Assembly (NCBI GenBank): GCA_002839285.1
Contig: PGXT01000001.1
Span: 6,573-70,572, forward strand
Direction of reading: 5' to 3'
Length of the DNA: 64,000 bases
From: Spirochaetae bacterium HGW-Spirochaetae-5
GTDB lineage: Bacteria; Spirochaetota; UBA4802; UBA5550
This document shows positions 4,982 through 33,306 of the stretch, piece by piece; the first letter of the stretch is position 1, and each line of letters opens with the position of its first letter. The notes beneath the pieces are model-generated. The model saw only the letters and a program-made list of their open reading frames with translations. It did not search any database and had not been told where the DNA came from. The translations under genes were made by a program, and so were the position numbers.

Positions 4982-6211
4982 ATGCCCGATGTAATAATTA
5001 TTTCAACAGGTGAGGAGCTGCTTCAGGGGACTACAATAAATACAAACAGCTCCTTCATAAGCAGTCTTCTCTTCGGAACTAATTTTAATGTTTTAAAACA
5101 TATAGTGATCGGAGATAAACTTGAATCAATAATATCCTGCATTAAAGAATCTGCAGAAGAAGCGGAGATAATAATTACAACGGGAGGGCTTGGACCGACC
5201 GATGATGACAATACCGTAGCGGCAGTCTGCAGTGTCTTCCGGAAGAATGTTTTAATCGATGAAGAATCAGACCGGAAAACTATCAGGTTCTTTCAGTCAA
5301 TGAATTTATCCCCCAGCAGACTTGACAGCCGGATGTCTGCTGTCCCCGAGGGAGCATATGTAATTCAGAACCGGTCCGGCTTGGCTCCCGGTTTTATAAT
5401 TAAAAATGAAACTTCGACGGTAATCTCAATTCCGGGTGTCCCGGCTGAAGCTGAAAACATGATGCTCTCCGATGTAATCCCTTATCTGAAAAAAGAATTT
5501 CTGTTTTCTGAAAACATGAAACTCACATACAGAATGTCCGGGATCAGAGAATCAGATATAAATACAATGTTAAACGATATTAACCTTCCTGTTTTTTTAA
5601 ATACAGGTATTACTTCAAAATCCGGTGTTTGCGACCTTGTTATAACAGGAATAAACGATGAGATAATTTCAAAAAACGAAATTGATATGTTAATCAATAA
5701 TAAATTCAAAAAATATCTGCTGGGATACAACGCATCATCTCCGGAAGAGGAACTTGTATCACTATTGAAAGAAAAAAACATGACAATTTCTACTGCAGAA
5801 TCATGCACAGGCGGGCTCATCGCAAAAAAGATAACCGATATTCCCGGTTCATCTGCTGTTTTCAAAGGATCTATTATTGCATACAGCAATGAAATCAAAG
5901 AAAATTTTCTTGATGTTTCGCCGTCAACTCTTAGACAATATGGTGCAGTGAGCGAAAATACAGCTGCTGAAATGGCATCGGGAATACAAAAAAAATTTGT
6001 CACAGATATATCTGTTTCAACAACGGGTATAGCCGGTCCGGATGGAGGGAGCGATATAAAACCTGTAGGAACAGTATGCTTCGGTTTCAGAATCAACGAT
6101 TATCAGCATACTTTTACAAGGATTATAAAGGGGAACAGAGATAGAGTGCGGACATTTTCAAGTCTGTACACAATTAATTTTTTAAGGGATTATTTAAAAA
6201 ATTTAGACTGA
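4982..6211 (+). CDS. cinA: competence/damage-inducible protein CinA (MoCF-biosynthesis domain plus PncC-like C-terminal domain)
   Basis: ITTGGLGPTDDD motif of the MoaB/MogA/CinA fold. 409 aa, two-domain architecture. Start is 4 nt after the argS stop. Confidence 0.8.
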   Translation: MPDVIIISTGEELLQGTTINTNSSFISSLLFGTNFNVLKHIVIGDKLESIISCIKESAEEAEIIITTGGLGPTDDDNTVAAVCSVFRKNVLIDEESDRKTIRFFQSMNLSPSRLDSRMSAVPEGAYVIQNRSGLAPGFIIKNETSTVISIPGVPAEAENMMLSDVIPYLKKEFLFSENMKLTYRMSGIRESDINTMLNDINLPVFLNTGITSKSGVCDLVITGINDEIISKNEIDMLINNKFKKYLLGYNASSPEEELVSLLKEKNMTISTAESCTGGLIAKKITDIPGSSAVFKGSIIAYSNEIKENFLDVSPSTLRQYGAVSENTAAEMASGIQKKFVTDISVSTTGIAGPDGGSDIKPVGTVCFGFRINDYQHTFTRIIKGNRDRVRTFSSLYTINFLRDYLKNLD

Positions 6212-9646: not shown

Positions 9647-9793
9647 ATCCGGTAATTAATATAACTTCCGATAAGATATATTATGTCTCTTTAGCTTTTT
9701 TCTTATGATTTACTCTGCTATTATAGCAGAATAAAGCAAGCATTTTTTTATTTTTCCCAACTCTTTTTCCACACCGCTTTTGTAACTTTTCCT

Positions 9794-9822
9794 TGACATT
9801 AAACACCATTACCCGGTATATT
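9794..9822 (+). promoter_or_regulatory. sigma70-like promoter candidate: TTGACA, 17-nt spacer, TATATT
   Basis: Hexamers read from the sequence about 180 nt upstream of the 10000..10752 ORF. The host may use a different consensus, so confidence is low. Confidence 0.2.
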
Positions 9823-9930
9823 AATTTTACTTTGCCAGAAAATCCCTAATCCCCCGACTCTAAAAAAAAGAATAAAAAACCGGATTCAAACAACACACCG
9901 GAGCAACCACCAGAAGAGGAAAAACTCCGC

Positions 9931-9942
9931 TTAAAACGGGAT
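9931..9942. repeat. 12-bp direct repeat TTAAAACGGGAT, left copy (candidate att junction of the integrated element)
   Basis: Identical 12-mer at 20457..20468, which is 85 bp upstream of the Rep gene start. The two copies bracket the co-directional gene block. Confidence 0.35.
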
Positions 9943-9999
9943 TATGTTTTTCAGGAGGATAAATTTAATTTCCCAAGTACAGAACTTGAAAACAGAATT

Positions 10000-10752
10000 A
10001 TGAAAATAGTTCATGATAACCGGGGACATTTAATCCTATTTAAAAAAGCCATCTTCTGGACAGAGGCCTGTAAAGAGGAATCTAATTACTATGACTGGAA
10101 ATCCTCCCTCCGCGCTCATAATAACATTAATGGCAAATACGATATACATCTTAATCTTAATTTAAATAAAGATGTCCCGGACATTTCAGAACTACCGGCC
10201 GGAAAGTACCGGATTGTTATATCCTTTTATAACCCCTCTAAAAGGACTAAAAACAGGCTTTACGGCTGTGTAGATACTCAGAGTATAGACTTTGTTGTCG
10301 GAAGCCCTCTAGAGCTTAAAAACGGGGGGGAGAGGGGAACGAGCAACCACTTTAACCCCTCCCCGATCTCCCAGCTTAACCAGCTGGAAGAGATCGGGAA
10401 CGTGGTCAACAAAGTCGGGGAGATTTTAAACAAGTCTCTCGATATCCACAAAAACACTATCATGTTTCAAAACGAAATAGAGAAAACAGCTTTTGAAAAA
10501 GGATACCAGGAGCGATTAAAACAGGAAGAGTCCGAGCGAACTATCAAGACTTTAACTGAACGATTGGACGCACTAGAGAGAGGGAAAGAATTAACCACCG
10601 GCGGGAATAACTCACTTGTTGAGACTCTTCTTAAAGCGGGGAAATCAATGGGGATTCTCCCGGACATAGATATTAATAACATCACGCCGGAGCAGATTGT
10701 TTCTATCCTTTCCAAATTTCAGGCGCCAGCTACACCGCCCGCGGGGGAATAA
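10000..10752 (+). CDS. hypothetical protein (250 aa) with a coiled-coil C-terminal half; the only plus-strand gene inside the putative element
   Basis: ORF with a C-terminal heptad-like region (QERLKQEESERTIKTLTERLDALERGKE). No recognisable motif. Confidence 0.4.
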   Translation: MKIVHDNRGHLILFKKAIFWTEACKEESNYYDWKSSLRAHNNINGKYDIHLNLNLNKDVPDISELPAGKYRIVISFYNPSKRTKNRLYGCVDTQSIDFVVGSPLELKNGGERGTSNHFNPSPISQLNQLEEIGNVVNKVGEILNKSLDIHKNTIMFQNEIEKTAFEKGYQERLKQEESERTIKTLTERLDALERGKELTTGGNNSLVETLLKAGKSMGILPDIDINNITPEQIVSILSKFQAPATPPAGE

Positions 10753-11078
10753 TTATGCATGTTAATTGGTTAATCAATTTTTTAAATTATAGAGTCCAAA
10801 GAGACTGCACTTATTTTAATAAAGCTGGTGTATTCTTCAGAGATAAAAATGATAAGATAATAAAAATTTCGTCTATTGAATCAAATGAAAATAATGATAT
10901 TATTTTGACGGAGGATTAAGAGTGGAAAACAAAGAAATCAATATTTTAATCCAAAATTTAAGAAAAGTTTTAACCGAACAGGAATTAAAAATAGATGATA
11001 CAACAACAGATCTATCTTTCAATTACAAAGTTTTTATACAAAAAACTCTTCAATCTCTTCAATATATAAGATAAATTT

Positions 11079-11112
11079 TACCGCATAACGCCAGATACGG
11101 CGTTATGCGGTA
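11079..11112. repeat. perfect palindrome TACCGCATAACGCC-AGATAC-GGCGTTATGCGGTA (14-bp arms, 6-nt centre)
   Basis: Read directly from the sequence. Lies just beyond the late-operon terminator near the left end of the element. Contains CATAA/TTATG half-sites. Confidence 0.5.
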
Positions 11113-11132
11113 AAAAACACCTTCAAAAAAAC

Positions 11133-11166
11133 GAAAAAAAAGCCCCGGTCATTAATACCGGGGCTT
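11133..11166 (-). terminator. rho-independent terminator for the minus-strand late operon (AGCCCCGGT-loop-ACCGGGGCT plus T8 on the minus strand)
   Basis: GC hairpin preceded on the plus strand by an A-run (a T-run on the minus strand), immediately downstream of the last late gene (11234). Confidence 0.6.
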
Positions 11167-11233
11167 TGAAAAATCAATTCATCAAGAATTGATTTTTTTG
11201 CTTTCCGGAGGCTTCGCGTGGATCTATTTTCCG

Positions 11234-11656
11234 TCACCCGCCGACACTTTTAAAGACTTTATAAATAAATAGTAAAACGATTATTATTATGATTAAAACC
11301 CCGATATTAAATATTTTATCAAGGGAGCTTTCTTTCTCAGGCTCTGCACGGCTTTTAATAGTCAATAACGACTTGTTAACCGCGTCCAGTGCTGCACTCT
11401 TCTTAAATTTTACATCGTCACTGTCACCGGGAACGACACTTAAAACACCGCTTTTAATGACCTGTTTTAAGTCCTTTATGACTTCTTTATCCGGGGAAAA
11501 ATCCTTCTGGATAGTACCGCACCCGATTGATAAAAAAATACAGATCAATATAACCACATAAGCCACACCGAGAAAAGCCCCGATAAGAGCTTTAATGTTT
11601 CTCTTTATAAATGACAACACTCTTCCCCCCTGAATTTTTAAGCAGCATAAAGGCAA
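11234..11656 (-). CDS. u-spanin-like lysis protein (N-terminal signal peptide with lipobox, C-terminal TM anchor)
   Basis: Signal-like hydrophobic segment ending in the lipobox-like SIGC, a soluble middle, and a C-terminal TM helix IGVLIIIIIVLLFIY. Last gene of the lysis cassette. The true start may lie inside the track ORF, since it overlaps the upstream gene by 64 nt. Confidence 0.4.
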   Translation of the reverse strand: MPLCCLKIQGGRVLSFIKRNIKALIGAFLGVAYVVILICIFLSIGCGTIQKDFSPDKEVIKDLKQVIKSGVLSVVPGDSDDVKFKKSAALDAVNKSLLTIKSRAEPEKESSLDKIFNIGVLIIIIIVLLFIYKVFKSVGG

Positions 11657-12299
11657 GCAACGCCCCGCCGATTAAATATATTTTATCAATACCCGGCTTT
11701 ATAATTTCGTTGTAAAACTCTTTAGCCTCTGCATTCAATTTCTGTCCGGCTTTTTTCGAAGCTATAAACGGATTATTAAGAGATATATATAAAGATGCCA
11801 TTAAAGCAGGCTTTTTAAATACTTCATACCAGATCAAAATATTATTTACAATCGGAGCAACGGGGATAATTGCAATTTCATAATCAGCAGCATCAATTGA
11901 CTTTTCAGGTAAAAAAATTCCCCCGTGTTTTTTTAAGACCTCGATACCTTCCAGCCCCTCTTCTCTTAAATCAAAATGAATATGTCTGTTAAAGCTGGAT
12001 AGATAAACAGTATTAGCATAAGCCCTCAACTCATTAAAAAGCCATACATTCATGTACAGAGGATAGACCGTGATATCAATAGCTTTCCCGCCTGAGTGAT
12101 TCGCGTTCCTTTTTGTCCGGTCTTGTGAGGTTACGATAATATCAGTGACATTCTCGTAAAAATATGATTTTTTTTTTGCATCATTGAATATGTCGGCCAG
12201 TAAGGTATATAAACCATGACCGGCATCATTTAAGCGAGACCCGTTTTTAAAATTCGGAGTCTGGAAGATGAAAAAATCTTTATCATACTTTATTGACAT
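11592..12299 (-). CDS. peptidase M15 (VanY / L-alanoyl-D-glutamate peptidase-like) endolysin candidate with C-terminal TM segment
   Basis: Zinc-ligand motifs HSGGKAIDI (H-x6-D) and HIHFD (H-x-H) characteristic of M15 peptidases. C-terminal hydrophobic helix IYLIGGALLAFMLL. Confidence 0.65.
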   Translation of the reverse strand: MSIKYDKDFFIFQTPNFKNGSRLNDAGHGLYTLLADIFNDAKKKSYFYENVTDIIVTSQDRTKRNANHSGGKAIDITVYPLYMNVWLFNELRAYANTVYLSSFNRHIHFDLREEGLEGIEVLKKHGGIFLPEKSIDAADYEIAIIPVAPIVNNILIWYEVFKKPALMASLYISLNNPFIASKKAGQKLNAEAKEFYNEIIKPGIDKIYLIGGALLAFMLLKNSGGKSVVIYKEKH

Positions 12300-12756
12300 T
12301 TTCTATTAACCACTTCGCCGGGTCTGTGTGTTTGTTGTTTATCATAACTTCAAAGTGTAAATGCTCCCCCATGGAAAAGCCATAATTTCCAATAGTGCCG
12401 ACCTTCCCCCCTTCAAGTATTATGTCGCCTACGGAGAGACCTTTTAACGGGGCTATATGCTTAAATACGAAAGTTACATCAGGATTATCGGAGCTGTGAG
12501 CGATAACATACGGAGTCCAGGCACGCCCCAGAGGGACAGTATTATCAATTTCAAACTTACCCCTGACAAGCTTAAATCTGCAAGGGTATTCACTGTCAAC
12601 GTCAAGGATTCTATCGACTGTCATATCGCACGGAGCAATAGCCGTTTTATTTTTACCTGTGAAATCAATTCCATAATGAAAAACAGGTTTTCTCCCCGGC
12701 AGTGTTCGCATCCCGTACGGGGAAGTTATTTTTTTGTTGTCAACCGGATATCTCAT
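12283..12756 (-). CDS. peptidase M23 (LytM-type) peptidoglycan endopeptidase
   Basis: M23 motifs HYGIDF (H-x3-D) and GEHLHFEV (H-x-H). 157 aa, single domain. Confidence 0.8.
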   Translation of the reverse strand: MRYPVDNKKITSPYGMRTLPGRKPVFHYGIDFTGKNKTAIAPCDMTVDRILDVDSEYPCRFKLVRGKFEIDNTVPLGRAWTPYVIAHSSDNPDVTFVFKHIAPLKGLSVGDIILEGGKVGTIGNYGFSMGEHLHFEVMINNKHTDPAKWLIENVNKV

Positions 12757-13010
12757 ATCTCATCAACCTTTATTTCTTCGGCTTCCAGTGCTGCCAGTTC
12801 ATCAAGTTTATATTGTATTGCCTGAGCGCATAGATCAGGGATAGATTTTAAAACTCTGAATCTCTCAATATTTTGAGGTGAATATATATCCGATTCACGG
12901 AGAACCAGAAAGTCACCATTTGCAAGCTGTAAGACAAAACAGGTTATATCCGTTTTATCTTCGGTTAATTCAATATCAATTATTGTTGTATCGTAAAATA
13001 GAATATTCAT
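12753..13010 (-). CDS. hypothetical protein (85 aa)
   Basis: ORF packed tightly between neighbouring genes with 4-nt overlaps on both sides. No recognisable motif. Confidence 0.35.
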   Translation of the reverse strand: MNILFYDTTIIDIELTEDKTDITCFVLQLANGDFLVLRESDIYSPQNIERFRVLKSIPDLCAQAIQYKLDELAALEAEEIKVDEI

Positions 13011-13976
13011 TTAAACCACCCTTTGGAAAATAAAAGAAAAGGGGGCTACACTTGAATTTCTTCCTCTACAATACCATGTCCCAGAAAGAGCCACCCCATT
13101 ATCATACTGAAAATTATATTCATATATATTATCTGTTGAATACTTTACTATAAAACTTTGATTTCTTGCTACATCGCCATTCATCATGTTAGCAATATCT
13201 CTAGCTGAAATAATAGAGCCGATAGGGAAATTTATATTAGAATTGACTGAACCAGTATAAACTTTATTTTCTTTTAAAAACCCTGCTGCAACTGCTGACG
13301 CATCTTTTAAAAAGCCCTCAGTTTCTGCAGATGCTTCTTTCAGAAAGCCGAGAGCAATTAAAGCAGCTTCATCTAAACCGGCAGAGGATTTAAAAAAAAA
13401 ACCGGATAGATTGAAGTTGAATATATATTGCAGTTTGCAGAAATCCTTTGCATTCATCAAATTTACAGTACCGGAAGCAGTGACAAGAAAATAAATTGAA
13501 ACATCACTGGAGACAATCCCCTTTGCTGTCTTGATTGCTGCAAGGTCAAGAGCAATAGACTTTTTTGCGTAATCCTGAGAGAGGTTTAAATTCTCCCCCT
13601 CTGCCGTGTCCTGATAGAATGATTCTGAGAGTTTGAAAAGTCCCGCGCTTATAAAGTCAGCTTCTGCGAGATTCTCATCACATGAAGTAAAAGCATTAAA
13701 AACAGTGTCCGCACCTATCCAAGCAGAGATTTTAATATCTCCCTTAAATCTGCTTATAACCTGATTAATGTAATCAGATTCAACCACCGTCAAGAAATTG
13801 TTTAATGATACTTCAAGCCCTGTTAGTTCAGTGACTTTCAATCTGCAAGCCATAACCTTTTTCGGGATATTCGCAAAATTATTTTTGCCGGATAGATTAA
13901 AGTCTAAACCCTGCATATTAAAATTAAATCCCGTTAATGTCTTAAAGTTCTGAAAGTCCTGAATTATAACAGCCAC
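13011..13976 (-). CDS. hypothetical structural protein candidate (321 aa; spike or major capsid candidate)
   Basis: Largest late-operon protein. Beta-rich N- and C-terminal regions and an internal triple repeat GFLKEASA / GFLKDASA / GFLKENK. No enzymatic motif. Confidence 0.4.
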   Translation of the reverse strand: MAVIIQDFQNFKTLTGFNFNMQGLDFNLSGKNNFANIPKKVMACRLKVTELTGLEVSLNNFLTVVESDYINQVISRFKGDIKISAWIGADTVFNAFTSCDENLAEADFISAGLFKLSESFYQDTAEGENLNLSQDYAKKSIALDLAAIKTAKGIVSSDVSIYFLVTASGTVNLMNAKDFCKLQYIFNFNLSGFFFKSSAGLDEAALIALGFLKEASAETEGFLKDASAVAAGFLKENKVYTGSVNSNINFPIGSIISARDIANMMNGDVARNQSFIVKYSTDNIYEYNFQYDNGVALSGTWYCRGRNSSVAPFSFIFQRVV

Positions 13977-14002
13977 TTGACCCGCCCCAAATTTTTATTT
14001 AT

Positions 14003-14344
14003 TTATACAAGCAGCTCAAAAACCAGAACCGCTACAATATCCGAGCTGTGCGAATTATTAAATTCATAATTATACTTTGCGCCCGGCTCCCCGAGTTTTA
14101 CCTTTTCGGGGAAAAGGTCTGTTAAAAGCTCAACCCCGATATTATCAAAAACCTTTTCACTTGTTGTACTGTTAAGCATTGTCATGTTTAATTTTCCCCT
14201 TAAACTTGACAGATCTGTGAGACAAACAACCTCACCTATTACGGGGTTTTTTCCCCTGATAAGCTGGTCAAGATCAAAAGTTCCAGCCAAGCCGGTTGAA
14301 CCGGCTGGAACGGTAATTGAAACTTGTGAATATTTCTTACCCAT
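14003..14344 (-). CDS. hypothetical protein (113 aa)
   Basis: ORF in the late operon. No recognisable motif. Confidence 0.35.
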   Translation of the reverse strand: MGKKYSQVSITVPAGSTGLAGTFDLDQLIRGKNPVIGEVVCLTDLSSLRGKLNMTMLNSTTSEKVFDNIGVELLTDLFPEKVKLGEPGAKYNYEFNNSHSSDIVAVLVFELLV

Positions 14345-14368
14345 AATTTAAACCCTATATCCCTTAAA

Positions 14369-14917
14369 TTATGCTATCTGCTGGGGCTTGTAAAGAATCC
14401 CTTTCATTACAACAACCAGCTCCGCATTTGCTTCAAGGATTGGAAGATTCACATTGAAATCAAAGTTTTCATCTTCTATCCATTCTCCGCCATCTATAAA
14501 AAGAGGCTGGAACGCTCTTACCGGCTGGGGCTGTGATGTACTTGTCGCCACCGTTACCGCTGAGTCAAAAAACTCTGCAAGGGAACCGCCCGCGATCTCT
14601 CTATCTGCAATAGATAGCTGAAAGTTACCGAGAGTGAGCTTCGAAAGGATTGCCGGGGTAACTGCTGCACCTGTTGAAAGCTTGTAAATAAATCCGACTT
14701 TCTGAACGTTGAAAATCTGATCTACCGGGAAGCGGGGACCCTGATTTTTCCAGTTTGTTTTACTACCTTTTGAGCCGAATTTCCCATCCATTTCAAGAAA
14801 CGCTTTTGCATCTACAACGGGGGTTGACGCATTACCGTCAATGGTATAATAAAAGGATTTTCCTATCCCGTCCATCAACTTTGAATCACCTTTTTTATTT
14901 GTTACTTTTCTTAACAT
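14369..14917 (-). CDS. hypothetical protein (182 aa), beta-rich; candidate jelly-roll capsid protein
   Basis: ORF in the late operon with alternating hydrophobic beta-strand-like composition. Fold is not verifiable from sequence alone. Confidence 0.35.
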   Translation of the reverse strand: MLRKVTNKKGDSKLMDGIGKSFYYTIDGNASTPVVDAKAFLEMDGKFGSKGSKTNWKNQGPRFPVDQIFNVQKVGFIYKLSTGAAVTPAILSKLTLGNFQLSIADREIAGGSLAEFFDSAVTVATSTSQPQPVRAFQPLFIDGGEWIEDENFDFNVNLPILEANAELVVVMKGILYKPQQIA

Positions 14918-14957
14918 TTGAATAACTCCGAATTTTTTATTTTAAAGTTTTAAGGTA

Positions 14958-15428
14958 TTAAAACCTTGTTACATCAGTTTCAACCGCTGCACGGTTTACA
15001 CCATTTCCCGCCGGGGGAATATATGAAGCCTGCTTTGTCTGTCCGTTTGGCATCTTAACCGGAACAGATACACCGCTTACCGCATTCATAGAACCGGAAC
15101 CGCCGAGCGCGTTAATGTATGTAATCAGAGTCGCTTTTTTCTTCGGGTCAGTCTCTTTCCCTGCAATCTCTGTTAATATGTCGCGAATCATCGCCACACC
15201 ACCGACCGCCATACCACCGACCGCCAGAAACTCCGCGACCTTCTTATCTTTTACAAGAAGACTTGCCAGAACCGCCGGAGCTACCATTGTCAAAAGGTTT
15301 GACAGATATTTATTGCTGATTCTTCCAGCAAGTAAAAACTGGACAATAACCGGAGCAAATGCGCCGACTGCCTTGTCTTTATCTGCAAAATTTTTAACGC
15401 TACCCATTAAATCTAATTTTTTAGCCAT
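14958..15428 (-). CDS. membrane-associated protein (156 aa; Ala/Gly/Val-rich hydrophobic segments)
   Basis: Three hydrophobic stretches (AFAPVIVQFLLAG, LLTMVAPAVLASLLV, FLAVGGMAVGGVAMI). ORF in the late operon. Confidence 0.4.
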   Translation of the reverse strand: MAKKLDLMGSVKNFADKDKAVGAFAPVIVQFLLAGRISNKYLSNLLTMVAPAVLASLLVKDKKVAEFLAVGGMAVGGVAMIRDILTEIAGKETDPKKKATLITYINALGGSGSMNAVSGVSVPVKMPNGQTKQASYIPPAGNGVNRAAVETDVTRF

Positions 15429-15431
15429 CGT

Positions 15432-16076
15432 TTATTTCCTCTTCTTTTTATTGCTTAATAACAAAACCCCGGCAGTTAAACCGCCGATAATTAACAGCGG
15501 ATTCATACCGGAGTTTTTCTTATTATCGTTTTCAATTTCAATTTCAATTTCATCATTGTATATTGTTTCTTTCTCTTCAGGCGGTAAAACCGGAGTAATA
15601 GGCTGCACCTGATAAATATTTGCCTCTGCGCTCTGTGTTGTTTTATAATTATAAATTATACCGATAAGACTATCAGTTCTAAATTTATATATTGCCTGTA
15701 AAATCTGAAGAACTCCATTTCTACTGAAAGCCGTTTCGCCCTGGTCTGTCTTTGTCTTCATAATCTCAGTTATGAAACTTTCTGAATTTTCCGGGGTTAC
15801 TGAATACCCTCTTAAGATTGATTCTTTCAGGTATGATAATATTATATGCTGCGCGTACCACCATGATACAACCGTGACGCCGTTTCTCTTAAGTAAATAC
15901 TGAACATGGCTTGTAAGCGCGAACAGAACCGCCATTGACGCCGTTTTTGTTTTTCCGTCTGACAGTCCGAAAGTAAGAACTTTACTAACTGCAAGTTTCG
16001 AATTAAAATCCGGGTCATTATTTGAAAACCAGTTTCTGAGACTGGTAATATCTATATATTTTCTATCAATTGTCAT
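15432..16076 (-). CDS. C-terminally membrane-anchored protein with a degenerate P-loop-like motif (214 aa)
   Basis: GLSDGKTKT resembles Walker A but is one residue short. C-terminal TM helix LLIIGGLTAGVLLL followed by KKKRK. Size is in the range of the small packaging ATPases of membrane-containing phages, but ATPase activity is not supported by motif alone. Confidence 0.4.
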   Translation of the reverse strand: MTIDRKYIDITSLRNWFSNNDPDFNSKLAVSKVLTFGLSDGKTKTASMAVLFALTSHVQYLLKRNGVTVVSWWYAQHIILSYLKESILRGYSVTPENSESFITEIMKTKTDQGETAFSRNGVLQILQAIYKFRTDSLIGIIYNYKTTQSAEANIYQVQPITPVLPPEEKETIYNDEIEIEIENDNKKNSGMNPLLIIGGLTAGVLLLSNKKKRK

Positions 16077-16080
16077 AATC

Positions 16081-16602
16081 TTAATACCATCCCAGAAACG
16101 CGAAATACTGATTAATCATTGCCTTAATATCATCAACAACCGCCATTCCCTGCTCTGGGATATCCCCGGCGTATAACTCATAATAAGCCTTTGCCGTTTC
16201 TATTACTGCCATAGTGGAAATATAAACATTCTTTCCGCTTGAATACATATCCCCAACAAGAGGCGCATCTTCTGCCAGCTTATCCAGTGCCGACAATAAA
16301 GGAGCGGAAGCATCGACAAAGGCTTTTATTCCTGTGTCTGCGTAAACGTCAGATACTGTCTCTTTTATGTCGCTGTATTGTTCCTGTACGCTCTGCGCTG
16401 CATCGACTGTCAACTCTACGGCGTTTTGAACCATGTCCATAATCTCTGACTGATAAGCAGCGGACGCCACATCCTGAACAGTTTCAACTGCATTCTGTGC
16501 AACATCAACAGCACTCTGGACGGCGCCAGTAACAGCAGAAACAGCATTTGTAATAATTCGCGGGGGACTCCAACCCCAGCCGACAACATCACTTTGTTTC
16601 AT
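16081..16602 (-). CDS. hypothetical Ala/Val/Gln-rich protein (173 aa)
   Basis: Repetitive S/AVxxAVQxAV segments. No TM or enzymatic motif. Confidence 0.35.
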   Translation of the reverse strand: MKQSDVVGWGWSPPRIITNAVSAVTGAVQSAVDVAQNAVETVQDVASAAYQSEIMDMVQNAVELTVDAAQSVQEQYSDIKETVSDVYADTGIKAFVDASAPLLSALDKLAEDAPLVGDMYSSGKNVYISTMAVIETAKAYYELYAGDIPEQGMAVVDDIKAMINQYFAFLGWY

Positions 16603-16604
16603 CT

Positions 16605-16799
16605 TTAACAGTGACCTTTTTCCCTATGTGATAAAGTCGAGGAAGCTTTAATGCAAATTTCAAACTCAAAGAGATTTGAGAAAAAAACTTTACAGTGACG
16701 GAAAAAGTCAGCAGTATGTATCTTATGACAATTTCTTTTATTGTCTCTGTTTTGTTTTCGCTCATCCTTAACCCCTTTTAAATTTTGCAATTTCTTCAT
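16605..16799 (-). CDS. small hypothetical ORF (64 aa), doubtful
   Basis: Fills a 165-nt gap between neighbouring genes. Basic, no motif. Confidence 0.15.
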   Translation of the reverse strand: MKKLQNLKGVKDERKQNRDNKRNCHKIHTADFFRHCKVFFSNLFEFEICIKASSTLSHREKGHC

Positions 16800-17169
16800 C
16801 AGGAAACCTTTCCCCCAGCTTTAAAAAATCATAACTATTATCATAGTCTATGAATTTTGAACCGTCCCACACTCTACAAAAAACATGATAACGGTTTACA
16901 TCTGTTCTTAAGTACACCACTTCAAAATCAATTTCATTCTGCATTAAGTAGATCATTGTGACTTTTGTTTTTTCGCCACAATCCCCACCATATCTGATTA
17001 TGTCGCTTGGGTCTCTGGAAACATCTTCGAAAACCTGCTCTTTAAATATGACTCCCTGCGACATAAAATTAAAAAAGTCTGTTAAGCTCTTTTCGATCAA
17101 AAAGGCGGGGAGCTTTTGAAAACCCGCAAAGAAAAACAGCTGATCTGTATAATGCTGAAAACTGAACAT
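16768..17169 (-). CDS. transglutaminase-like/papain-fold cysteine peptidase candidate (133 aa)
   Basis: GDCGEKT followed downstream by YHVF and D residues, compatible with a Cys-His-Asp transglutaminase-like core. Weak, motif-level only. Confidence 0.3.
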   Translation of the reverse strand: MFSFQHYTDQLFFFAGFQKLPAFLIEKSLTDFFNFMSQGVIFKEQVFEDVSRDPSDIIRYGGDCGEKTKVTMIYLMQNEIDFEVVYLRTDVNRYHVFCRVWDGSKFIDYDNSYDFLKLGERFPDEEIAKFKRG

Positions 17170-17175
17170 AGACTT

Positions 17176-17337
17176 TATCTGTACTTTTTAATCATTGTTT
17201 CTTTTTTCTTTTTGTCCGAATCAATTTCATTACAGCGTTTATTCCAGTCTTTTAAACGCTCTTCAAACTTTTTCCATGATTCAAGGCTTGCGCTTGCCTT
17301 TGGTTTTTTTGGTCTTTTAGGTTTTTTAATAGCCATT
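17176..17337 (-). CDS. small highly basic protein (53 aa; MAIKKPKRPKKPK...), candidate DNA-binding or genome-condensing protein
   Basis: ORF translated by hand from the minus strand; absent from the track because it is shorter than 60 aa. About 35 percent Lys/Arg. Confidence 0.3.
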
Positions 17338-17563
17338 ACTTACCCGCCTTTTTTATAATCATAATCAAAGGAATTGAGAGAATGACAAGTTTAACCGGAA
17401 CAAAACCGAATATCTTATATTCGTAAAGTGCTTTAACTGCGTCCGGTAAAACTCCCTGCTCTTTAAATTCCTTAACTAATTCTTTTTCGTCTAAAAACAA
17501 ACTCATTCTTTGACCTGTTGTATTTTTGATACATGTATCAATTATACAACAATTTGTCAACAA
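17336..17563 (-). CDS. small membrane protein (C-terminal TM; probable start at the internal Met giving about 56 aa)
   Basis: C-terminal helix LVILSIPLIMII. First gene after the internal terminator. Confidence 0.3.
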   Translation of the reverse strand: MLTNCCIIDTCIKNTTGQRMSLFLDEKELVKEFKEQGVLPDAVKALYEYKIFGFVPVKLVILSIPLIMIIKKAGK

Positions 17564-17598
17564 AAAAACCGCCTTTTTAGGGGCGGTTTTAAAAAAAG
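17561..17598 (-). terminator. rho-independent (bidirectional-looking) terminator separating the early and late transcription units of the element
   Basis: AAAACCGCC-loop-GGCGGTTTT hairpin flanked by an A-run and a T-run, immediately downstream of the lipoprotein gene. Confidence 0.6.
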
Positions 17599-17633
17599 TT
17601 GTATTTTATTAAATTATAAAATAATTAGTTAAT

Positions 17634-17957
17634 TTACTTCTTTTCGAGTGTGTAAGTTTTTTCCGCTGGATAATCCATCCACCAGAGGTAGGAAAAAATA
17701 TGAATTATATTAAATTCACTCTTTTGTAAATTGGTCTGAAAGTCTTTATACTCATCTTTCTGAAGTTTGACCTCTGTTGACATCCACAAAGGCTTACTGT
17801 CAGTGTGAGCATATGGAGTCACGCCTTTAAGCTCCCCATCAATAAAAATTTTAGCTTCGCCGGGGACACTCTGAATTTTTACAGTGCTTGAACAACCGAC
17901 CGCAAAGATTAAAAGACTTAATACAACCGCGAACATCTTAAATTTTTTCATGTGCAT
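17634..17957 (-). CDS. lipoprotein (107 aa)
   Basis: Signal peptide with lipobox AVGC (MKKFKMFAVVLSLLIFAVGCSS). Confidence 0.5.
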   Translation of the reverse strand: MHMKKFKMFAVVLSLLIFAVGCSSTVKIQSVPGEAKIFIDGELKGVTPYAHTDSKPLWMSTEVKLQKDEYKDFQTNLQKSEFNIIHIFSYLWWMDYPAEKTYTLEKK

Positions 17958-18005
17958 AACCTCTCTTTTATTTGATATAAAAATTAATTTATATGCTCTT
18001 TTTTG

Positions 18006-18215
18006 TCAATGTAAAATCTTTTTCTGCTTCTTAATATAGGCATAAGCTTTTAAGGCTATCCGGCCTATGACTTCAATATTTTTTTTCCGTTCCTGCTGCT
18101 TCCATTTTTTTATATTGTTAAGGTCACGACCTAGAATAAAACCAAACACAGCAGACACCATACAGACCAATAAAAATAATAAATTAAACATCACTCCCCG
18201 CCTGCATGAAATCAA
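18006..18215 (-). CDS. small single-TM protein with basic C-terminus (holin-like or virion membrane protein candidate)
   Basis: TM helix FNLLFLLVCMVSAVFGFILG followed by a Lys-rich tail. Confidence 0.3.
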   Translation of the reverse strand: MISCRRGVMFNLLFLLVCMVSAVFGFILGRDLNNIKKWKQQERKKNIEVIGRIALKAYAYIKKQKKILH

Positions 18216-18402
18216 ACTCCATGCTCTTAATGTCTTTAGAGTCTATATTACTTTTAATTTTCTTAAGTAATACCCGGCTTAATTTATGCAGTGCTTCAGC
18301 TTCTTTTTTTATTGCTTCAGCTGCTCCCGGATTCATTTTTAAAAGTCCAAAGGACTCCATCATATTTTTCTGAGTGCTTAAAAAATCGTTTTTAACTGAC
18401 AT
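18184..18402 (-). CDS. hypothetical protein (72 aa)
   Basis: ORF in the early unit. No motif. Confidence 0.3.
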   Translation of the reverse strand: MSVKNDFLSTQKNMMESFGLLKMNPGAAEAIKKEAEALHKLSRVLLKKIKSNIDSKDIKSMEFDFMQAGSDV

Positions 18403-18403
18403 A

Positions 18404-19018
18404 TTAGTTCCCCCATTGTTCTGCCATTGCTTTAGATATACCAGGCGGGAAGAGACTTCTTTCTTTCCCTTTCCCTTTCCCTAATTTACCGAATTTAGAA
18501 TATTTACTTAATCCCGATTTTGTTTTTTTAGAATTATAAAATAGATATTCCGGTATAACTTCTGAAGAGGGAAATAACCCCCCCTCCGGAAACCAGTTTA
18601 AAAACGGTAAATTTTTAAGCCATAAACAAGTCTTCTTTGAATAATTATCTCCGAAAAAATAAGGCTGTATAATTTGATCAGGTTTTTTAAATTTTGTACT
18701 CAGAACACCGACCGGATTTTCAATTGCAATTTTAGGGATATTACAATCCCATAATTTTTTTACAAAAGAAATAGCTTCTTTTTGCTGTTCTATTTTGTTT
18801 TTAAAATGTGCTGCCCCTGAAACTGCTAAATGAGTACACGGAGGAAACGCGATCATCATATCCCATTTATCATTTATTATATCCATGACATCGCCCTGGT
18901 AATGTAAACCAGGCTTTTCTGTTGGTAATAAATCACATGATAAAACATAATGACCAAGTTTTTTAAATTCATCTCTGACGGCTCCGGAATATTCACATGC
19001 AACCAGTATCCGCATCAA
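18404..19018 (-). CDS. miniature DNA (cytosine-5)-methyltransferase-like protein (204 aa) with a divergent motif I and almost no target-recognition domain
   Basis: Collinear C5-MTase motifs: motif I variant ILVACEYSGAVRDEF in place of LFxGxGG; motif IV FPPCTHLAVSGA (PC catalytic dipeptide); motif VI IAIENPVGVL (ENV); motif VIII-like YSKKTCLWL; C-terminal QWGN (motif X-like, compare QFGNSV). Confidence 0.5.
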   Translation of the reverse strand: MMRILVACEYSGAVRDEFKKLGHYVLSCDLLPTEKPGLHYQGDVMDIINDKWDMMIAFPPCTHLAVSGAAHFKNKIEQQKEAISFVKKLWDCNIPKIAIENPVGVLSTKFKKPDQIIQPYFFGDNYSKKTCLWLKNLPFLNWFPEGGLFPSSEVIPEYLFYNSKKTKSGLSKYSKFGKLGKGKGKERSLFPPGISKAMAEQWGN

Positions 19019-19290
19019 GCCCCCCTCTGAACGTCAATGTCTTTTGTCAGTGTGTTATATATTTCTCTAATCTCCGCGGGCGTCTTTACAGCTTTATTTT
19101 CAACGTGTAAAGCACTGTCATTTTTTAACATTCCTTCCCCTTCAACGTCTATAAAATCTATACCGTCAAATTTTGAGACAGTAAACTGAAAAGGAATTTC
19201 ATCAATCCGCTTTTTCTCTACGCCTTTTTTTATTAAATATACTTGTATCGCTATTTCAAATTCTTTAACAGTCCCTATAAAACAGATCAT
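19015..19290 (-). CDS. hypothetical protein (91 aa)
   Basis: ORF between the Rep and MTase-like genes with 4-nt overlaps at both ends. Confidence 0.35.
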   Translation of the reverse strand: MICFIGTVKEFEIAIQVYLIKKGVEKKRIDEIPFQFTVSKFDGIDFIDVEGEGMLKNDSALHVENKAVKTPAEIREIYNTLTKDIDVQRGA

Positions 19291-20372
19291 TATTTTTTAT
19301 CCTCCGGTTTTTTATATAATTCGACGTCTTGAATATCCGCGCCGTTGTATTGGTTTCCCCTGAAAAGTTGATTTTTAACGCCGTCCGACAGTACCCGGAA
19401 GCTCTTGACGACATCAGAGTCGTCAAGCTCCGGGAATCGGAAGGTTTTAACAGCTTCATAGCTCCAGAAATGTGTTAGTTCCCGTTTATGTTTAAGCAAG
19501 TGTGCTTCTTCTATAACAAGGGAGAAGAAGCACCGATCTCGACAATCCCCGCAAAATCCATCGTAACCGCTCGGACAGTCGACAGGGCTTGTTTGCACTT
19601 CCCCGACAACCCCCCGAGTCCTTCCACTGGAATATCCTCTGGATGCTCTAAACGCTTTTTTGTTGTGTTTGATAAGTGAATATAAACCGATTATTTTTTT
19701 AAGTTCTTCATCGGTAAGAGCTGCTCCGGCCTTCGCTTTTTGATAAATTGCCTTAACCCCGTTGAAACCTTTGGCCACATATTTAAAAATGTAATAGCTT
19801 GCCCGTGTACTGTAGCAAGCCTCTACACTGGTTATATGTTTCCATTTGCTGTTAATACGGTCTTTTAATTCAGGGTCTGCAATCTCTGCGAATGGCTTTG
19901 TCTTTTTTGTGTATTTGTTATATCTTCTACGCATAACAAATTTAACGGGGTTTTTGAGAGTGATTAAAATGTGAGCATGTGCAACGCCTTTTTTCGTTGC
20001 TTCAAGCGTAACAATATAATCGGTCATCTCGATATAACTGTCACGCCTGAGAGCATCAAAAAAATATTTTGAATCTTTCCCGAATTGCTCCCAGCTCTCA
20101 AAAGTGTCGGGATAAGTCAAGACAACATGAATTAAATTTGACATTGAGTTCTCAGTGTCAATATTTGTTTTAGCTTCAAGCATCTTTTCAATCTTCCAGA
20201 CTCGACCAGATACCCGGCTATCATGTGCAACATTACCCCGGCGCGGAGCAAGCCCGACAAATTCATTATTAAATTCTATGTAAAACTCCTTTTTGTAATG
20301 GAGATCAAAGAAATTAATGACTTCATAATCGAGATAATTTGTTGCTTTTTTTGCTTGACTTCTATCGCTCAA
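19290..20372 (-). CDS. rolling-circle replication initiator, HUH endonuclease superfamily I (phiX174 gpA / Microviridae VP4 / PM2 P12-like), with C-terminal Cys cluster
   Basis: Motif 1 VVLTYPDT, motif 2 HAHILITL (HUH), motif 3 YYIFKYVAKG (two catalytic Tyr spaced as in phiX174 YVAKYVNK). C-terminal CPSGYDGFCGDCRDRC resembles a zinc ribbon. Confidence 0.8.
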   Translation of the reverse strand: MSDRSQAKKATNYLDYEVINFFDLHYKKEFYIEFNNEFVGLAPRRGNVAHDSRVSGRVWKIEKMLEAKTNIDTENSMSNLIHVVLTYPDTFESWEQFGKDSKYFFDALRRDSYIEMTDYIVTLEATKKGVAHAHILITLKNPVKFVMRRRYNKYTKKTKPFAEIADPELKDRINSKWKHITSVEACYSTRASYYIFKYVAKGFNGVKAIYQKAKAGAALTDEELKKIIGLYSLIKHNKKAFRASRGYSSGRTRGVVGEVQTSPVDCPSGYDGFCGDCRDRCFFSLVIEEAHLLKHKRELTHFWSYEAVKTFRFPELDDSDVVKSFRVLSDGVKNQLFRGNQYNGADIQDVELYKKPEDKK

Positions 20373-20456
20373 TTCGGTAGTTTCCTTTTAATTGAATACA
20401 ACAAACCCGCCCCAAATAACGGGTTTTGTTTTCGGTAATTATTAAGAAATGACATT

Positions 20457-20468
20457 TTAAAACGGGAT
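20457..20468. repeat. 12-bp direct repeat TTAAAACGGGAT, right copy
   Basis: Identical to 9931..9942. Sits 85 bp upstream of the Rep start codon. Confidence 0.35.
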
Positions 20469-20485
20469 ATTCTCCCGCTTTTTTT

Positions 20486-20689
20486 TTATTTTGGTAATTT
20501 ACTTACGATGTCAGTCCATTTGATTTTACATTCTTCTCTCGTACCGGAGATAAAAACCTGCTGAACTATCCCCTCTAGTTGAATTGTAAAAAATGAACCA
20601 GTGTTGTCTTTTTTGTCTGTGATTGCAGACATAAAAATGATTTTAGCGGGATTGAAAACCCCATTTTCAGTGACTATAAGATTTGACAT
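20486..20689 (-). CDS. hypothetical small protein (67 aa)
   Basis: ORF between the element and ispF. No motif. Confidence 0.25.
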   Translation of the reverse strand: MSNLIVTENGVFNPAKIIFMSAITDKKDNTGSFFTIQLEGIVQQVFISGTREECKIKWTDIVSKLPK

Positions 20690-20845
20690 TTGAGACCTCT
20701 TTTTATTTTTTTTATTTTAACCTCTCGGAAGAGTGGTTAATCTTTTTTATTTTGCCGGGAGAGTTTTACTACCTCCCCCGGCAAGTTTGCCCTTTTCCCA
20801 CTGTACACGCCCCCCAGCCTGCACAGTGATAAAGGGGCAAGCCCT

Positions 20846-21019
20846 TTATTTTATTTCCTGAAGGTAATTATGAATGCTACGGATTTTTGCGTCACAGTTT
20901 AAATAAATTTCATCATTTCCAGGATTAAGAGTTGAGCAGGCTTTCAGCTCATCAATTACGACCTGTAATGATTTTTCTATTTTTTCGATCTGCTTGATAA
21001 CGTCGGAGGTGTTTGACAT
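20846..21019 (-). CDS. small protein (57 aa, MSNTSDVIKQIEKIEKSLQVVIDELKACSTLNPGNDEIYLNCDAKIRSIHNYLQEIK) downstream of ispF
   Basis: Hand-translated ORF; under 60 aa so missing from the track. Good AGGAG Shine-Dalgarno 6 nt upstream of the ATG. Confidence 0.35.
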   Translation of the reverse strand: MSNTSDVIKQIEKIEKSLQVVIDELKACSTLNPGNDEIYLNCDAKIRSIHNYLQEIK

Positions 21020-21107
21020 GGTAAACTCCTTTTAATATTAAAATTAATTTGCTTAATATTTAATAGAAAAAAGCTATTAGAATAAGATATATTATGTCTC
21101 CGCTGTA

Positions 21108-33210: not shown

Positions 33211-33216
33211 AAAAAT

Positions 33217-33298: not shown

Positions 33299-33306
33299 AC
33301 GCCGGA

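Follow-up and report, generated by a model that had tools for sequence, protein, structure and literature searches.

A mini Dcm-like cytosine-C5-methyltransferase homologue, probably an orphan DNA methyltransferase, encoded with a rolling-circle Rep in a spirochaete genome

We analysed a stretch of 64,000 nucleotides from Spirochaetae bacterium HGW-Spirochaetae-5 (hereafter, the window), in which an 11.4-kb virus-like element is integrated into the spirochaete chromosome. The element is bounded by perfect 19-nt direct repeats at 9671..9689 and 21082..21100 (plus strand); in the window this repeat matches twice, whereas shuffled sequences give an expectation of 0. A coupled block of genes on the minus strand begins with a rolling-circle Rep at 19290..20372, which has an HUH-type HAHILI motif and a YxxKY-like motif and matches PF23343 (REP_ORF2-G2P, E = 1.4e-7, above the gathering score) and phrog_3419 (E = 3.2e-5). 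It is followed by a 91-amino-acid ORF without a family match (19015..19290, minus strand), start/stop-coupled both to Rep and to the gene under study, which encodes a mini C5-methyltransferase-like protein (18404..19015, minus strand, stop codon included; 203 amino acids, 23.0 kDa, pI 9.2). The methyltransferase gene is translationally coupled to the Rep block. A terminator-like hairpin of nine pairs and a T-run at 17565..17590 (minus strand), picked up by a consensus scan only, is likely the end of the minus-strand unit that holds the gene. The element also carries an endolysin-like gene. No restriction or defence genes were found in the four neighbouring ORFs (PADLOC) or among the element ORFs scanned with Pfam and PHROGs, and the methyltransferase gene is an orphan on a phage-like mobile element, with no restriction endonuclease adjacent to it. 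Neither Rep nor a 182-amino-acid ORF of the element had a match in 50,697 phage records, and Rep had no relative in IMG/VR.

The ORF list and its translation put the reading frame at 18404..19018 on the minus strand. The original prediction had described an ORF of this extent, with no strand given, as encoding 204 amino acids; the ORF stands, but the length most likely does not. The listed TTG at 19018 directly precedes an ATG at 19015, and we read this ATG as most likely the true start, giving a protein of 203 rather than 204 residues, because a Shine-Dalgarno-like GAGGGGGG (19020..19027, minus strand; read from the sequence) precedes this codon (19015-19013) by 4 nt, the codon shares bases with the TGA that closes the preceding ORF (TGATG), and the N-termini of homologues read MK/MR-(I/V)-L.

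The ORF is a real, conserved gene. The same protein, at 100% identity, is annotated as hypothetical in the metagenome-assembled genome of Spirochaetae bacterium HGW-Spirochaetae-5, and the gene lies far beyond chance, since at least 8,000 homologues were scored in the homology search, with 6,570 clusters at 50% identity having E ≤ 0.001. Among PHROGs it matches phrog_757, ‘DNA methyltransferase’, from end to end (E = 2.6e-63), its residues 1-202 covering positions 15-219 of the 247-position profile. The origin of the sequence in a metagenomic assembly, and the fact that 6 of 21 Pf-prophage dcm copies have been reported as pseudogenes (PMC7549136), would suit a chance ORF or a decayed, non-functional remnant in this genome. 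We find this barely credible given the full-length ORF with its end-to-end match, the presence of every family-invariant residue, the strong ribosome-binding site with stop/start coupling, and 62-68% identity to many intact homologues.

Relatives of the phrog_757 type are carried by 1,496 of the 50,697 phage records (~3%). The family is very large and already annotated in phages, so the gene is in this respect fairly ordinary. The ACEYSG loop and the nearly absent target-recognition domain (TRD), which the original prediction singled out as features that do not fit, turn out to be the norm of this family. Its core clade includes P-SSP7 gp12 from a Prochlorococcus phage, the ‘dcm’ of Pf inoviruses, and proteins of 15-kb Arthrobacter phages and of Vibrio, Acinetobacter and Cellulophaga phages. 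These are full-length homologues with 40-52% identity, share the signature CExSG / SCD / H / PPCT / ENP / KxTCLW / RS / QW, and are likewise orphan, accessory genes; their hosts and element types differ from ours, the methyltransferase gene alone being held in common. Literature searches turned up no core-clade protein, P-SSP7 gp12 and Pf dcm included, that had been tested experimentally. In Pf inoviruses, in a 7.7-kb inovirus-like contig with Zot and Rep, in Vequintavirus (next to a primase/helicase gene) and in phage contigs of 30-40 kb, relatives are found among replication or early genes. Across nine loci we found no common partner gene that could supply DNA recognition, and no homologue of the 91-amino-acid ORF lay beside the methyltransferase gene in the other loci compared. 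In longer relatives, P0192, P0200 and P0219 among them, a scan recognised no fused domain that might confer specificity or act as a partner.

By sequence, established methyltransferase models recognise the protein poorly. Sequence searches covering Pfam, NCBIfam and the PDB (phmmer), together with hmmsearch runs of two family profiles, gave no match reaching threshold, and PF00145 did not hit the 203-residue protein even at E ≤ 10, let alone at its gathering score. To gauge conservation we used a set of 106 diverse family members (42-57% identity to the query), and counted motifs in 275 members. PF00145 was the sole Pfam family matched repeatedly by members, in 8 of the 106, all below threshold (best E = 0.0011), and the PADLOC type II methyltransferase model matched weakly across motifs IV to VI (E = 0.018).

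The AlphaFold2 model (pLDDT 88, pTM 0.85) has a seven-stranded Rossmann-type layout, and in a Foldseek search of the PDB the top 50 matches were all C5-cytosine methyltransferases, namely DNMT3A/B, M.HaeIII, DNMT1 and M.HhaI (E = 2e-6 to 2e-4; TM ~0.5 on the query). Matches in BFVD were dominated by viral C5-methyltransferases. In the model the protein thus has a class I Rossmann-type fold with the C5-methyltransferase arrangement, in agreement with the Dcm/M.HhaI fold originally predicted; a structure lacking the Rossmann methyltransferase fold, which would have counted against that prediction, is not what Foldseek shows. The pLDDT drops to ~60 exactly in the loop after the Pro-Cys, as expected of a mobile catalytic loop.

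We mapped motifs by aligning the 106-member family profile with hhalign to M.HhaI plus M.HaeIII and to DNMT3A, the reference sequences being verified against PDB entries. Motifs I to VIII are collinear with both (E = 1.4e-4 each), the profile-profile link to the canonical enzymes being modest, with a probability of ~52%. At the position of motif I, C7-E8-Y9-S10-G11 (18983..18997, minus strand) replaces the FxGxG loop that binds AdoMet, aligning to F18-A-G-L-G22 of M.HhaI; the alignment supports the earlier reading of ACEYSG as standing in place of the glycine-rich loop. Within the family the motif varies as ACE(Y/F/E/C)S(G/Q), and ‘ACEESQ’ members have no glycine at all. S26-C27-D28 (18932..18940, minus strand) closes strand 2, with SCD in 261 of 275 members; D28 falls within 1-2 residues of M.HhaI E40 in the alignment and is a candidate for the ribose-binding acid of motif II. 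G41-D42-V43 (18887..18895, minus strand) is the equivalent of motif III, GDI in M.HhaI, as judged by hhalign and family counts. C7, C27 and H38, all in the cofactor half, are invariant residues specific to the clade, and none is present in the aligned sequences of the phage KarlJaspers Dcm or its Chapo homologue.

The catalytic half is more conventional. The FPPC and ENPVGVL segments named as motifs IV and VI in the original prediction are both present: P58-P59-C60 (18836..18844, minus strand) aligns to P80-C81 of M.HhaI and holds the candidate catalytic cysteine, and E99-N100-P101 (18713..18721, minus strand), canonically ENV, aligns to E119-N-V, with ENP in 270 of 275 members. P58, C60, E99, D28 and K127 are invariant across the 106 diverse members, a pattern that argues for retained catalysis. 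The proposed motif VIII is sound in position, but K127-K128-T129 (18629..18637, minus strand; followed by C-L-W) resembles the canonical Q-x-R-x-R little, as KxT replaces RxR and both arginines are missing. K127 and T129 align to R163 and R165 of M.HhaI and to R790 and R792 of DNMT3A; conservation of T129 is 90% or higher.

Some 53 residues separate motif VIII from R186-S187, close to the ~55 first proposed between motifs VIII and X. The variable part, a Lys/Gly/Ser-rich segment of 48 residues (residues 138-185; 18461..18604, minus strand; pI 9.7), occupies the TRD position, where M.HhaI has ~140 and DNMT3A ~100 residues; in most family members it is 20-50 residues long. The model predicts a β-hairpin here, with strands at 158-161 and 169-172 (pLDDT 66-87). 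R186-S187 and the C-terminal helix GISKAMAEQW (18410..18460, minus strand; helix 191-201 in the AlphaFold2 model) make up the probable motif X region, with RS in 236 and QW in 253 of 275 members. QWGN, the first proposal for motif X, is doubtful, as it ends the C-terminal helix and is probably not that motif. E-R-S-L-F-P-P-G, before the last helix, is the better candidate; its resemblance to G-R-S-W-S-V-P-V of DNMT3A is weak and not significant (E = 0.8).

Degenerate motifs of this kind raise the question of whether the protein is an enzyme at all. A non-enzymatic, DNMT3L-like derivative could bind DNA or a host protein and serve as a replication regulator or a decoy for host defence. The degenerate motif I, lacking glycine in some members, the failure of any methyltransferase model to match at threshold by sequence, and the placement of the gene among regulatory and replication genes would suit such a role. 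Pseudoenzymes such as DNMT3L, however, have lost the Pro-Cys nucleophile and the ENx glutamate, whereas here both are invariant or nearly so in thousands of diverged sequences. Together with the mutant phenotype of a studied relative, described next, this makes a non-enzymatic role, in our estimate, highly unlikely.

The closest studied relative is a 236-residue Dcm-like C5 methyltransferase of the Drexlerviridae phages K42 and KarlJaspers (bas06_0055 in the latter). With KarlJaspers bas06_0055, hhalign gave a probability of 99.4% (E = 1.2e-21) and BLASTP an E value of 7e-15; identity is 29-33%, and BLASTP aligns only the catalytic half, the N-terminal half being unalignable. The K42 genome is 95.4% identical to that of KarlJaspers, and its 711-bp dcm triggers the retron Ec86 (Eco1) and raises 5mC in the msDNA of that retron, as measured by LC-MS (bioRxiv 10.1101/2023.08.16.553469; published as Cell Rep 2024;43:114857). 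The C82A/E128A/K175A/K176A variant gave neither retron triggering nor the rise in 5mC (bioRxiv 10.1101/2023.08.16.553469), which speaks against a non-enzymatic protein. By BLASTP and hhalign alignment to KarlJaspers bas06_0055 and the Chapo homologue, the four residues correspond to C60, E99, K127 and K128 here. In that study the CCWGG specificity was assumed from the host Dcm, and assays were done in a dcm+ host (bioRxiv 10.1101/2023.08.16.553469). A further retron study, on Bas51, concerns an adenine methyltransferase and is irrelevant here.

Like our protein, the K42/KarlJaspers Dcm is small, stand-alone and phage-encoded, has neither RxR nor a large TRD, and shares the features of the catalytic half (FPPCT, IENPV, KKTCLW and, ahead of the final helix, R-S-L-(S/T/F)-P). 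It differs in coming from tailed enterobacterial phages and not from a rolling-circle element, and in an insertion of ~20 residues between motifs VI and VIII. The cofactor half found here (CExSG, SCD, H38) differs from that of this only tested relative, in which a near-canonical motif I, F-D-G-S-G, aligns with our C-E-Y-S-G and the SCD, H38 and GDV signature of our clade is missing.

Among proteins of known structure, DNMT3A and DNMT3B are the best fold matches in the PDB, although Foldseek scores for DNMT3A are barely apart from those for M.HaeIII or DNMT1, and the sequence similarity to DNMT3A is marginal (E = 1.4e-4, profile versus sequence). Shared with our protein are an acid as the second residue of motif I (F-D-G there, C-E-Y here), ‘(F/L)-W-x-N-L-P’ downstream of motif VIII, an ‘R-S’ preceding the final helix and a comparatively small TRD. 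DNMT3A nevertheless keeps R790 and R792, and its ~100 residues between motifs VIII and X; it functions in dimers or tetramers and has regulatory domains. Like M.HhaI and M.HaeIII (PF00145), the protein has the C5-methyltransferase fold with motifs I to VIII in the same order, and it keeps the nucleophilic Pro-Cys and the glutamate of ENx, but it lacks FxGxG and RxR and stays below Pfam thresholds; M.HhaI has ~140 residues between R165 and N304, compared with a TRD of ~50 residues here. Canonical type II C5-methyltransferases measure at least 327 amino acids, against ~200 here, and our protein has no cognate endonuclease.

Could the fold, while still catalytic, have been put to another use? A repurposed enzyme might act on a different substrate (ssDNA or hairpin DNA, replication intermediates, RNA), act almost without sequence specificity, or use a SAM analogue to transfer a group other than methyl. 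The clade-invariant C7, E8, S10, C27 and H38 in place of the motif I glycine loop, KxT in place of RxR, and a TRD position filled by only 20-50 basic residues all fit such a change, as does the recurrence of the gene in single-stranded DNA rolling-circle elements (the one in this window, Pf phages and the inovirus-like contig), and the substrate of the tested K42 relative was msDNA, which is single-stranded and forms a stem-loop. Yet KxT and the minimal TRD are common to the K42 Dcm, which gave ordinary 5mC; conservation extends to GD(V/I) and to the acid that follows strand 2, which usually contact adenosine; and rolling-circle elements also pass through a double-stranded phase. We therefore regard a repurposed fold as unlikely.

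A precedent for a new use of the fold is CmoX, a phage-encoded C5-methyltransferase homologue that acts as a DNA cytosine C5-carboxymethyltransferase at GC sites with carboxy-SAM as cofactor (PMC12783734). CmoX is nevertheless a full-length protein (Arg-350) with normal motifs, superposes on M.HhaI with an RMSD of ~1 Å, and is encoded in linkage with cmoA (Cx-SAM synthase) and cmoY (amide ligase) (PMC12783734); it falls outside the phrog_757 family. Among those ORFs of the element that were compared with Pfam and PHROGs, none was a CmoA/CmoY-type or other cofactor-synthesis gene. Being full length and having cmoA/cmoY neighbours, CmoX was rejected as the match for a ‘repurposed methyltransferase’.

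A further reading concerns the CE(Y/F/E)S(G/Q) clade, in which the glycine loop, the motif VIII arginines and the TRD have been lost and the invariant Cys7, Cys27 and His38 gained. Its members may depart from ordinary SAM-dependent, sequence-specific methylation of double-stranded DNA and be near-nonspecific or structure-specific C5 modifiers of replication intermediates or ssDNA, or users of another cofactor or of a bound metal. We rate this as quite unlikely; if true, such a non-canonical modifier would explain the spread of the family through rolling-circle, filamentous and tailed phages.

We favour, with moderate confidence, another explanation: the protein is probably a ‘mini Dcm-like’ (phrog_757) DNA cytosine-5 methyltransferase, an orphan carried by a phage and produced along with the rolling-circle Rep of the 11.4-kb element. 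The first of the alternatives raised originally, a compact phage methyltransferase, gains weight from the phage-like integrated element and the near absence of a TRD and, indirectly, from the K42/KarlJaspers homologue that raises 5mC in msDNA (bioRxiv 10.1101/2023.08.16.553469). In the mechanism we propose, the N-terminal half would hold S-adenosylmethionine through E8/S10/G11 of the degenerate motif I, D28 beyond strand 2 and the GDV aspartate D42. Base flipping would bring a cytosine of double-stranded DNA, for example in the replicative form or the prophage, into the pocket, where Cys60 of the Pro-Cys would attack C6 while Glu99 of E-N-P protonates N3; the methyl group would pass to C5, and β-elimination would then release the enzyme. 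Lys127 and Thr129 would stand in for the canonical Arg-x-Arg. The DNA would be gripped by the flexible catalytic loop (residues 61-71) and the basic Lys/Gly-rich hairpin (138-185) in place of a full TRD, and because this short basic hairpin replaces the domain, the recognised site is probably short or loosely defined. The gain expected for the element is that its DNA would be shielded from host restriction. For a single-stranded DNA virus, methylation of the packaged strand would yield a hemimethylated replicative form on entry.

The family sits outside Pfam and NCBIfam and, at 180-210 residues, probably counts among the smallest C5-methyltransferase-like proteins; experimental data come from a single distant branch, the trigger of retron Ec86. 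The way in which such a protein locates its site with no dedicated recognition domain, and whether its degenerate loop can still bind AdoMet, would bear on the evasion of restriction by phages, on retron triggers and on putting so small a cytosine methyltransferase to work as a tool.

The open reading frame at 18404..19018 (minus strand), found by ORF listing and translation of the window, encodes a small C5-cytosine-methyltransferase-like protein, mini-MTase. The listing begins it at TTG, and the following codon is an ATG (19015-19013). Because this ATG lies 4 nt past GAGGGGGG, overlaps the TGA stop of a preceding 91-aa ORF as TGATG and fits homologue N-termini of the form MK/MR-(I/V)-L-(I/V)-A-C-E, the product is most likely the 203-aa protein starting there (computed 23.0 kDa, pI 9.2), and residues are numbered from its methionine. 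The metagenome-assembled genome 'Spirochaetae bacterium HGW-Spirochaetae-5' encodes a hypothetical protein of the same sequence (100% identity).

A word-indexed search returned at least 8000 homologues, all at E ≤ 0.001, the closest among the matches listed being 198-237 aa long with 62-68% identity. Clustered at 50% identity, the hits of an exhaustive profile search form 6570 clusters within E ≤ 0.001, of which 1630 fall within E ≤ 1e-30; almost all are proteins that stand alone, 180-240 aa in length. On sequence grounds this is a real gene of a very large family, and that it is a decayed copy strikes us as barely credible. The family is already known: it is catalogued in PHROGs (residues 1-202 match phrog_757, 'DNA methyltransferase', E 2.6e-63), annotated widely, and studied in one branch. 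By tblastn, relatives occur in 1496 of 50,697 phage records, labelled variously as hypothetical protein, 'DNA methyltransferase', 'DNA cytosine methyltransferase' or 'SAM-dependent methyltransferase'. Full-length relatives with 40-52% identity include gp12 of Prochlorococcus podovirus P-SSP7 and its kin, as well as proteins of Pseudomonas aeruginosa Pf filamentous phages, 15-kb Arthrobacter phages, and Vibrio, Acinetobacter, Rhizobium, Cellulophaga and Pelagibacter phages. In Pf prophages the gene is 'dcm' by annotation only; it is present in 11.5% of them, and 6 of 21 copies are pseudogenes (PMC7549136, PMC11878078). Pfam, NCBIfam and the PDB gave no sequence match for mini-MTase, family profiles included.

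Structure prediction supports the C5-methyltransferase fold proposed in the original prediction. A confident AlphaFold2 model built on 43 homologues (mean pLDDT 88, pTM 0.85) arranges its strands and helices in the order of a class I methyltransferase, with strands at residues 2-6, 23-28, 38-40, 53-56, 95-101, 114-116 and 129-134, a long helix at 72-90, a small hairpin at 158-161/169-172 and a C-terminal helix at 191-201. Confidence dips only in the loop after Pro-Cys (61-70, pLDDT ~60) and at 141-150 (66). Foldseek returned 65 PDB matches at E ≤ 0.001, the best 50 of which are all C5-cytosine DNA methyltransferases, led by DNMT3A/3B (E 2e-6, TM ~0.5 on the query) and followed by M.HaeIII, DNMT1, plant MET1 and M.HhaI; since the model matches these enzymes, a Rossmann methyltransferase fold is predicted. 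Among viral models, the best match was a family member (TM 0.85), and the next were mainly annotated viral C5-methyltransferases.

The motif strings quoted in that prediction are all present, at C-E-Y-S-G 7-11, P-P-C 58-60, E-N-P 99-101 and, at the C-terminus, Q-W-G-N; K-K-T-C-L-W occupies residues 127-132. We aligned a profile of 106 members (42-57% identical to mini-MTase) by hhalign with M.HhaI and DNMT3A, whose reference sequences agreed with PDB chains along their whole length (10mh_A 1-327; 5yx2_A 1-285, residues 628-912), and with M.HaeIII. Motifs I to VIII were collinear with M.HhaI plus M.HaeIII and with DNMT3A (each E 1.4e-4, probability ~52%). C7-E8-Y9-S10-G11 corresponds to M.HhaI F18-A-G-L-G22 (motif I), D28 falls within 1-2 residues of E40 (II), G41-D42-V43 matches G59-D60-I61 (III), P59-C60 matches P80-C81 (IV), E99-N-P matches E119-N-V (VI), and K127 and T129 match R163 and R165, or R790 and R792 of DNMT3A (VIII). 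Sub-threshold matches pointed in the same direction: PF00145 was hit by eight of the 106 members (best E 0.0011) and every other Pfam family by at most two, a BUCT618 relative aligned with PF00145 positions 54-98, and residues 46-115 of mini-MTase matched a PADLOC type II methyltransferase model. Mini-MTase L-W-L-K-N-L-P also resembles F-W-G-N-L-P of DNMT3A. QWGN falls at the distal end of the C-terminal helix, and its reading as motif X is unlikely to hold; the best alignment to DNMT3A motif X (G-R-S-W-S-V-P-V-I-R) was E-R-S-L-F-P-P-G-I-S, which was not significant (E 0.8).

Nine residues (C7, S26, D28, H38, P58, C60, E99, Q114 and K127) are invariant in the 106 diverse members, and E8, S10, C27, P59, T61, N100, P101, P118, F121, G122, T129, W132, R186, Q200 and W201 are at least 90% conserved. 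Across 275 sequences, motif I reads ACEYSG in 109, ACEFSG in 62 and ACEESQ in 37, with minor variants besides; SCD (motif II) is present in 261, H38 in 274, ENP in 270 and R-S before the last helix in 236, and K-x-T-C-L-W is nearly universal. From residue 138 to R186, where a target-recognition domain (TRD) would sit, mini-MTase has a Lys/Gly/Ser-rich segment of 48 residues (pI 9.7), and other members mostly have 20-50. The odd motif I and near-absent TRD noted originally are thus present but not peculiar to mini-MTase: because they recur across the 275 sequences, they are, with the loss of RxR, family properties. That the nucleophile and the ENx glutamate are strictly retained, as are GD(V/I) and the acid after strand 2, suggests that catalysis and an adenosine-containing cofactor have been kept. 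With nucleophile and glutamate invariant, a non-catalytic binder seems improbable.

The studied branch comes from a retron Ec86 preprint (bioRxiv 10.1101/2023.08.16.553469, cited elsewhere as Cell Rep 2024;43:114857), in which escape mutants were isolated of Drexlerviridae phage K42, whose genome is 95.4% identical to that of phage KarlJaspers. All escapers carried mutations in a 711-bp 'Dcm-like C5 cytosine methyltransferase' gene, whose product was toxic only when expressed alongside the retron; by LC-MS, 5mC in msDNA was high with wild-type K42 Dcm and low with C82A/E128A/K175A/K176A. Its authors modelled the protein on DNMT3A and assumed CCWGG specificity from the host Dcm, the assays being in a dcm+ host. 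In KarlJaspers (MZ501090), gene bas06_0055 has precisely this length (711 bp) and encodes a protein with C82, E128, K175 and K176 within FPPC, IENP and FKKTCLW. Mini-MTase aligned with it by BLASTP (E 7e-15, 33% identity over residues 52-199) and hhalign (probability 99.4%, E 1.2e-21), pairing C60/C82, E99/E128, K127/K175 and K128/K176, and a homologue from Chapo (Tunavirus) gave the same picture. This enterobacterial-phage branch is found at full length in ~1366 phage records. Unlike mini-MTase, the tested protein has F-D-G-S-G as motif I, lacks the SCD/H38/GDV signature and carries a ~20-residue insertion before motif VIII. In phrog_757-type relatives with CExSG, SCD and H38, the cofactor-binding half contains Cys7, Cys27 and His38 as clade-specific invariant residues (minus-strand codons 18995-18997, 18935-18937 and 18902-18904 in mini-MTase), none of which was seen in the aligned KarlJaspers/K42-type sequences; a metal site or altered cofactor pocket is conceivable.

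Homologues elsewhere lie in similar surroundings. In Pf phage PfAC08 the gene is between excisionase/Arc-like genes and a ssDNA-binding protein gene; in Vequintavirus it precedes primase/helicase and polymerase genes; in 30-40-kb phage contigs it is near a YqaJ-type exonuclease or N6/N4 methyltransferase gene. On a Logan contig (SRR30681631, 7696 nt), a 64%-identical homologue at 5444-6061 is accompanied by genes for a Zot ATPase and for a protein of the REP_ORF2-G2P family; the contig has the appearance of an inovirus genome that is complete or nearly so. No conserved neighbour gene was found across these loci, which share only the methyltransferase gene with the element in the window; the gene thus behaves as an independent accessory unit passed horizontally from phage to unrelated phage. 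Its recurrence in single-stranded DNA elements, like the clade-specific cofactor half, favours a repurposed, still-catalytic enzyme in which substrate, cofactor or chemistry has changed, a reading we nevertheless regard as unlikely.

In the window, mini-MTase comes last in a run of three minus-strand genes coupled stop to start, after a rolling-circle initiator Rep (19290-20372; PF23343 REP_ORF2-G2P, E 1.4e-7, above gathering score; phrog_3419) and the 91-aa ORF (19015-19290). Downstream follow small ORFs, a PEGA-domain lipoprotein and a strong terminator-like hairpin (17565-17590); just beyond is a 36-nt near-perfect palindrome (17516-17551, overlapping arms, 90% complementary). Perfect 19-nt direct repeats, ATAAGATATATTATGTCTC (9671-9689 and 21082-21100; two matches in the window, none in 100 shuffles), bound an 11.4-kb element between host gcvH and ispF. 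Besides the operon, its minus-strand block (11234-20372) encodes an M23 endolysin-like peptidase (12283-12756; phrog_3578, E 4.3e-32), a 321-aa protein with a weakly tail/receptor-binding-like C-terminus (13011-13976), a 182-aa ORF (14369-14917) and many small or membrane proteins without assignment. No capsid protein, Zot, packaging ATPase or integrase was recognised in the element (9671-21100). On sequence evidence it is integrated, virus-like and rolling-circle replicating. The repeat contains ATAA-GATATA-TTATGT, resembling the E. coli dif core (…CATAA-TGTATA-TTATGT…), so Xer-mediated integration is possible. Two further features are candidate terminators or replication-origin structures: a GC-rich hairpin immediately ahead of Rep (20403-20426, minus) and, in the interval separating a plus-strand ORF (10000-10752) from the minus-strand block, a perfect inverted repeat whose 17-nt arms flank a 6-nt loop (11076-11092/11099-11115). 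Adjacent tRNA-Thr(TGT) and tRNA-Tyr(GTA) genes (33138-33300, plus) are ordinary host genes unrelated to mini-MTase.

The fold, motif conservation, K42 Dcm homology and operon and element context are established by this analysis; SAM use, DNA substrate, specificity and biological role we infer. Mini-MTase is probably a SAM-dependent DNA cytosine-5 methyltransferase of the orphan kind, which is produced along with Rep and marks the element's double-stranded form. Formation of 5mC was shown by others for the distant relative K42 Dcm only (bioRxiv 10.1101/2023.08.16.553469). The chemistry would follow the standard C5 route, with Cys60 attacking C6, Glu99 protonating N3, methyl transfer to C5 and then elimination. 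The mobile catalytic loop and the basic mini-hairpin would make the DNA contacts, so that specificity would be short or loose, and escape from restriction would be the likely benefit to the element.

KEGG 'DNMT3A' is reported to be among the commonest phage 'metabolic' genes in virome studies (PMC11309003); as the best structural matches of the family are DNMT3A/B, such calls may largely be phrog_757 proteins. The element may be a less ordinary object than its methyltransferase gene. None of the 50,697 phage records matched Rep or the 182-aa ORF, and IMG/VR yielded no relative of Rep; the element may represent an undescribed small virus type of spirochaetes.
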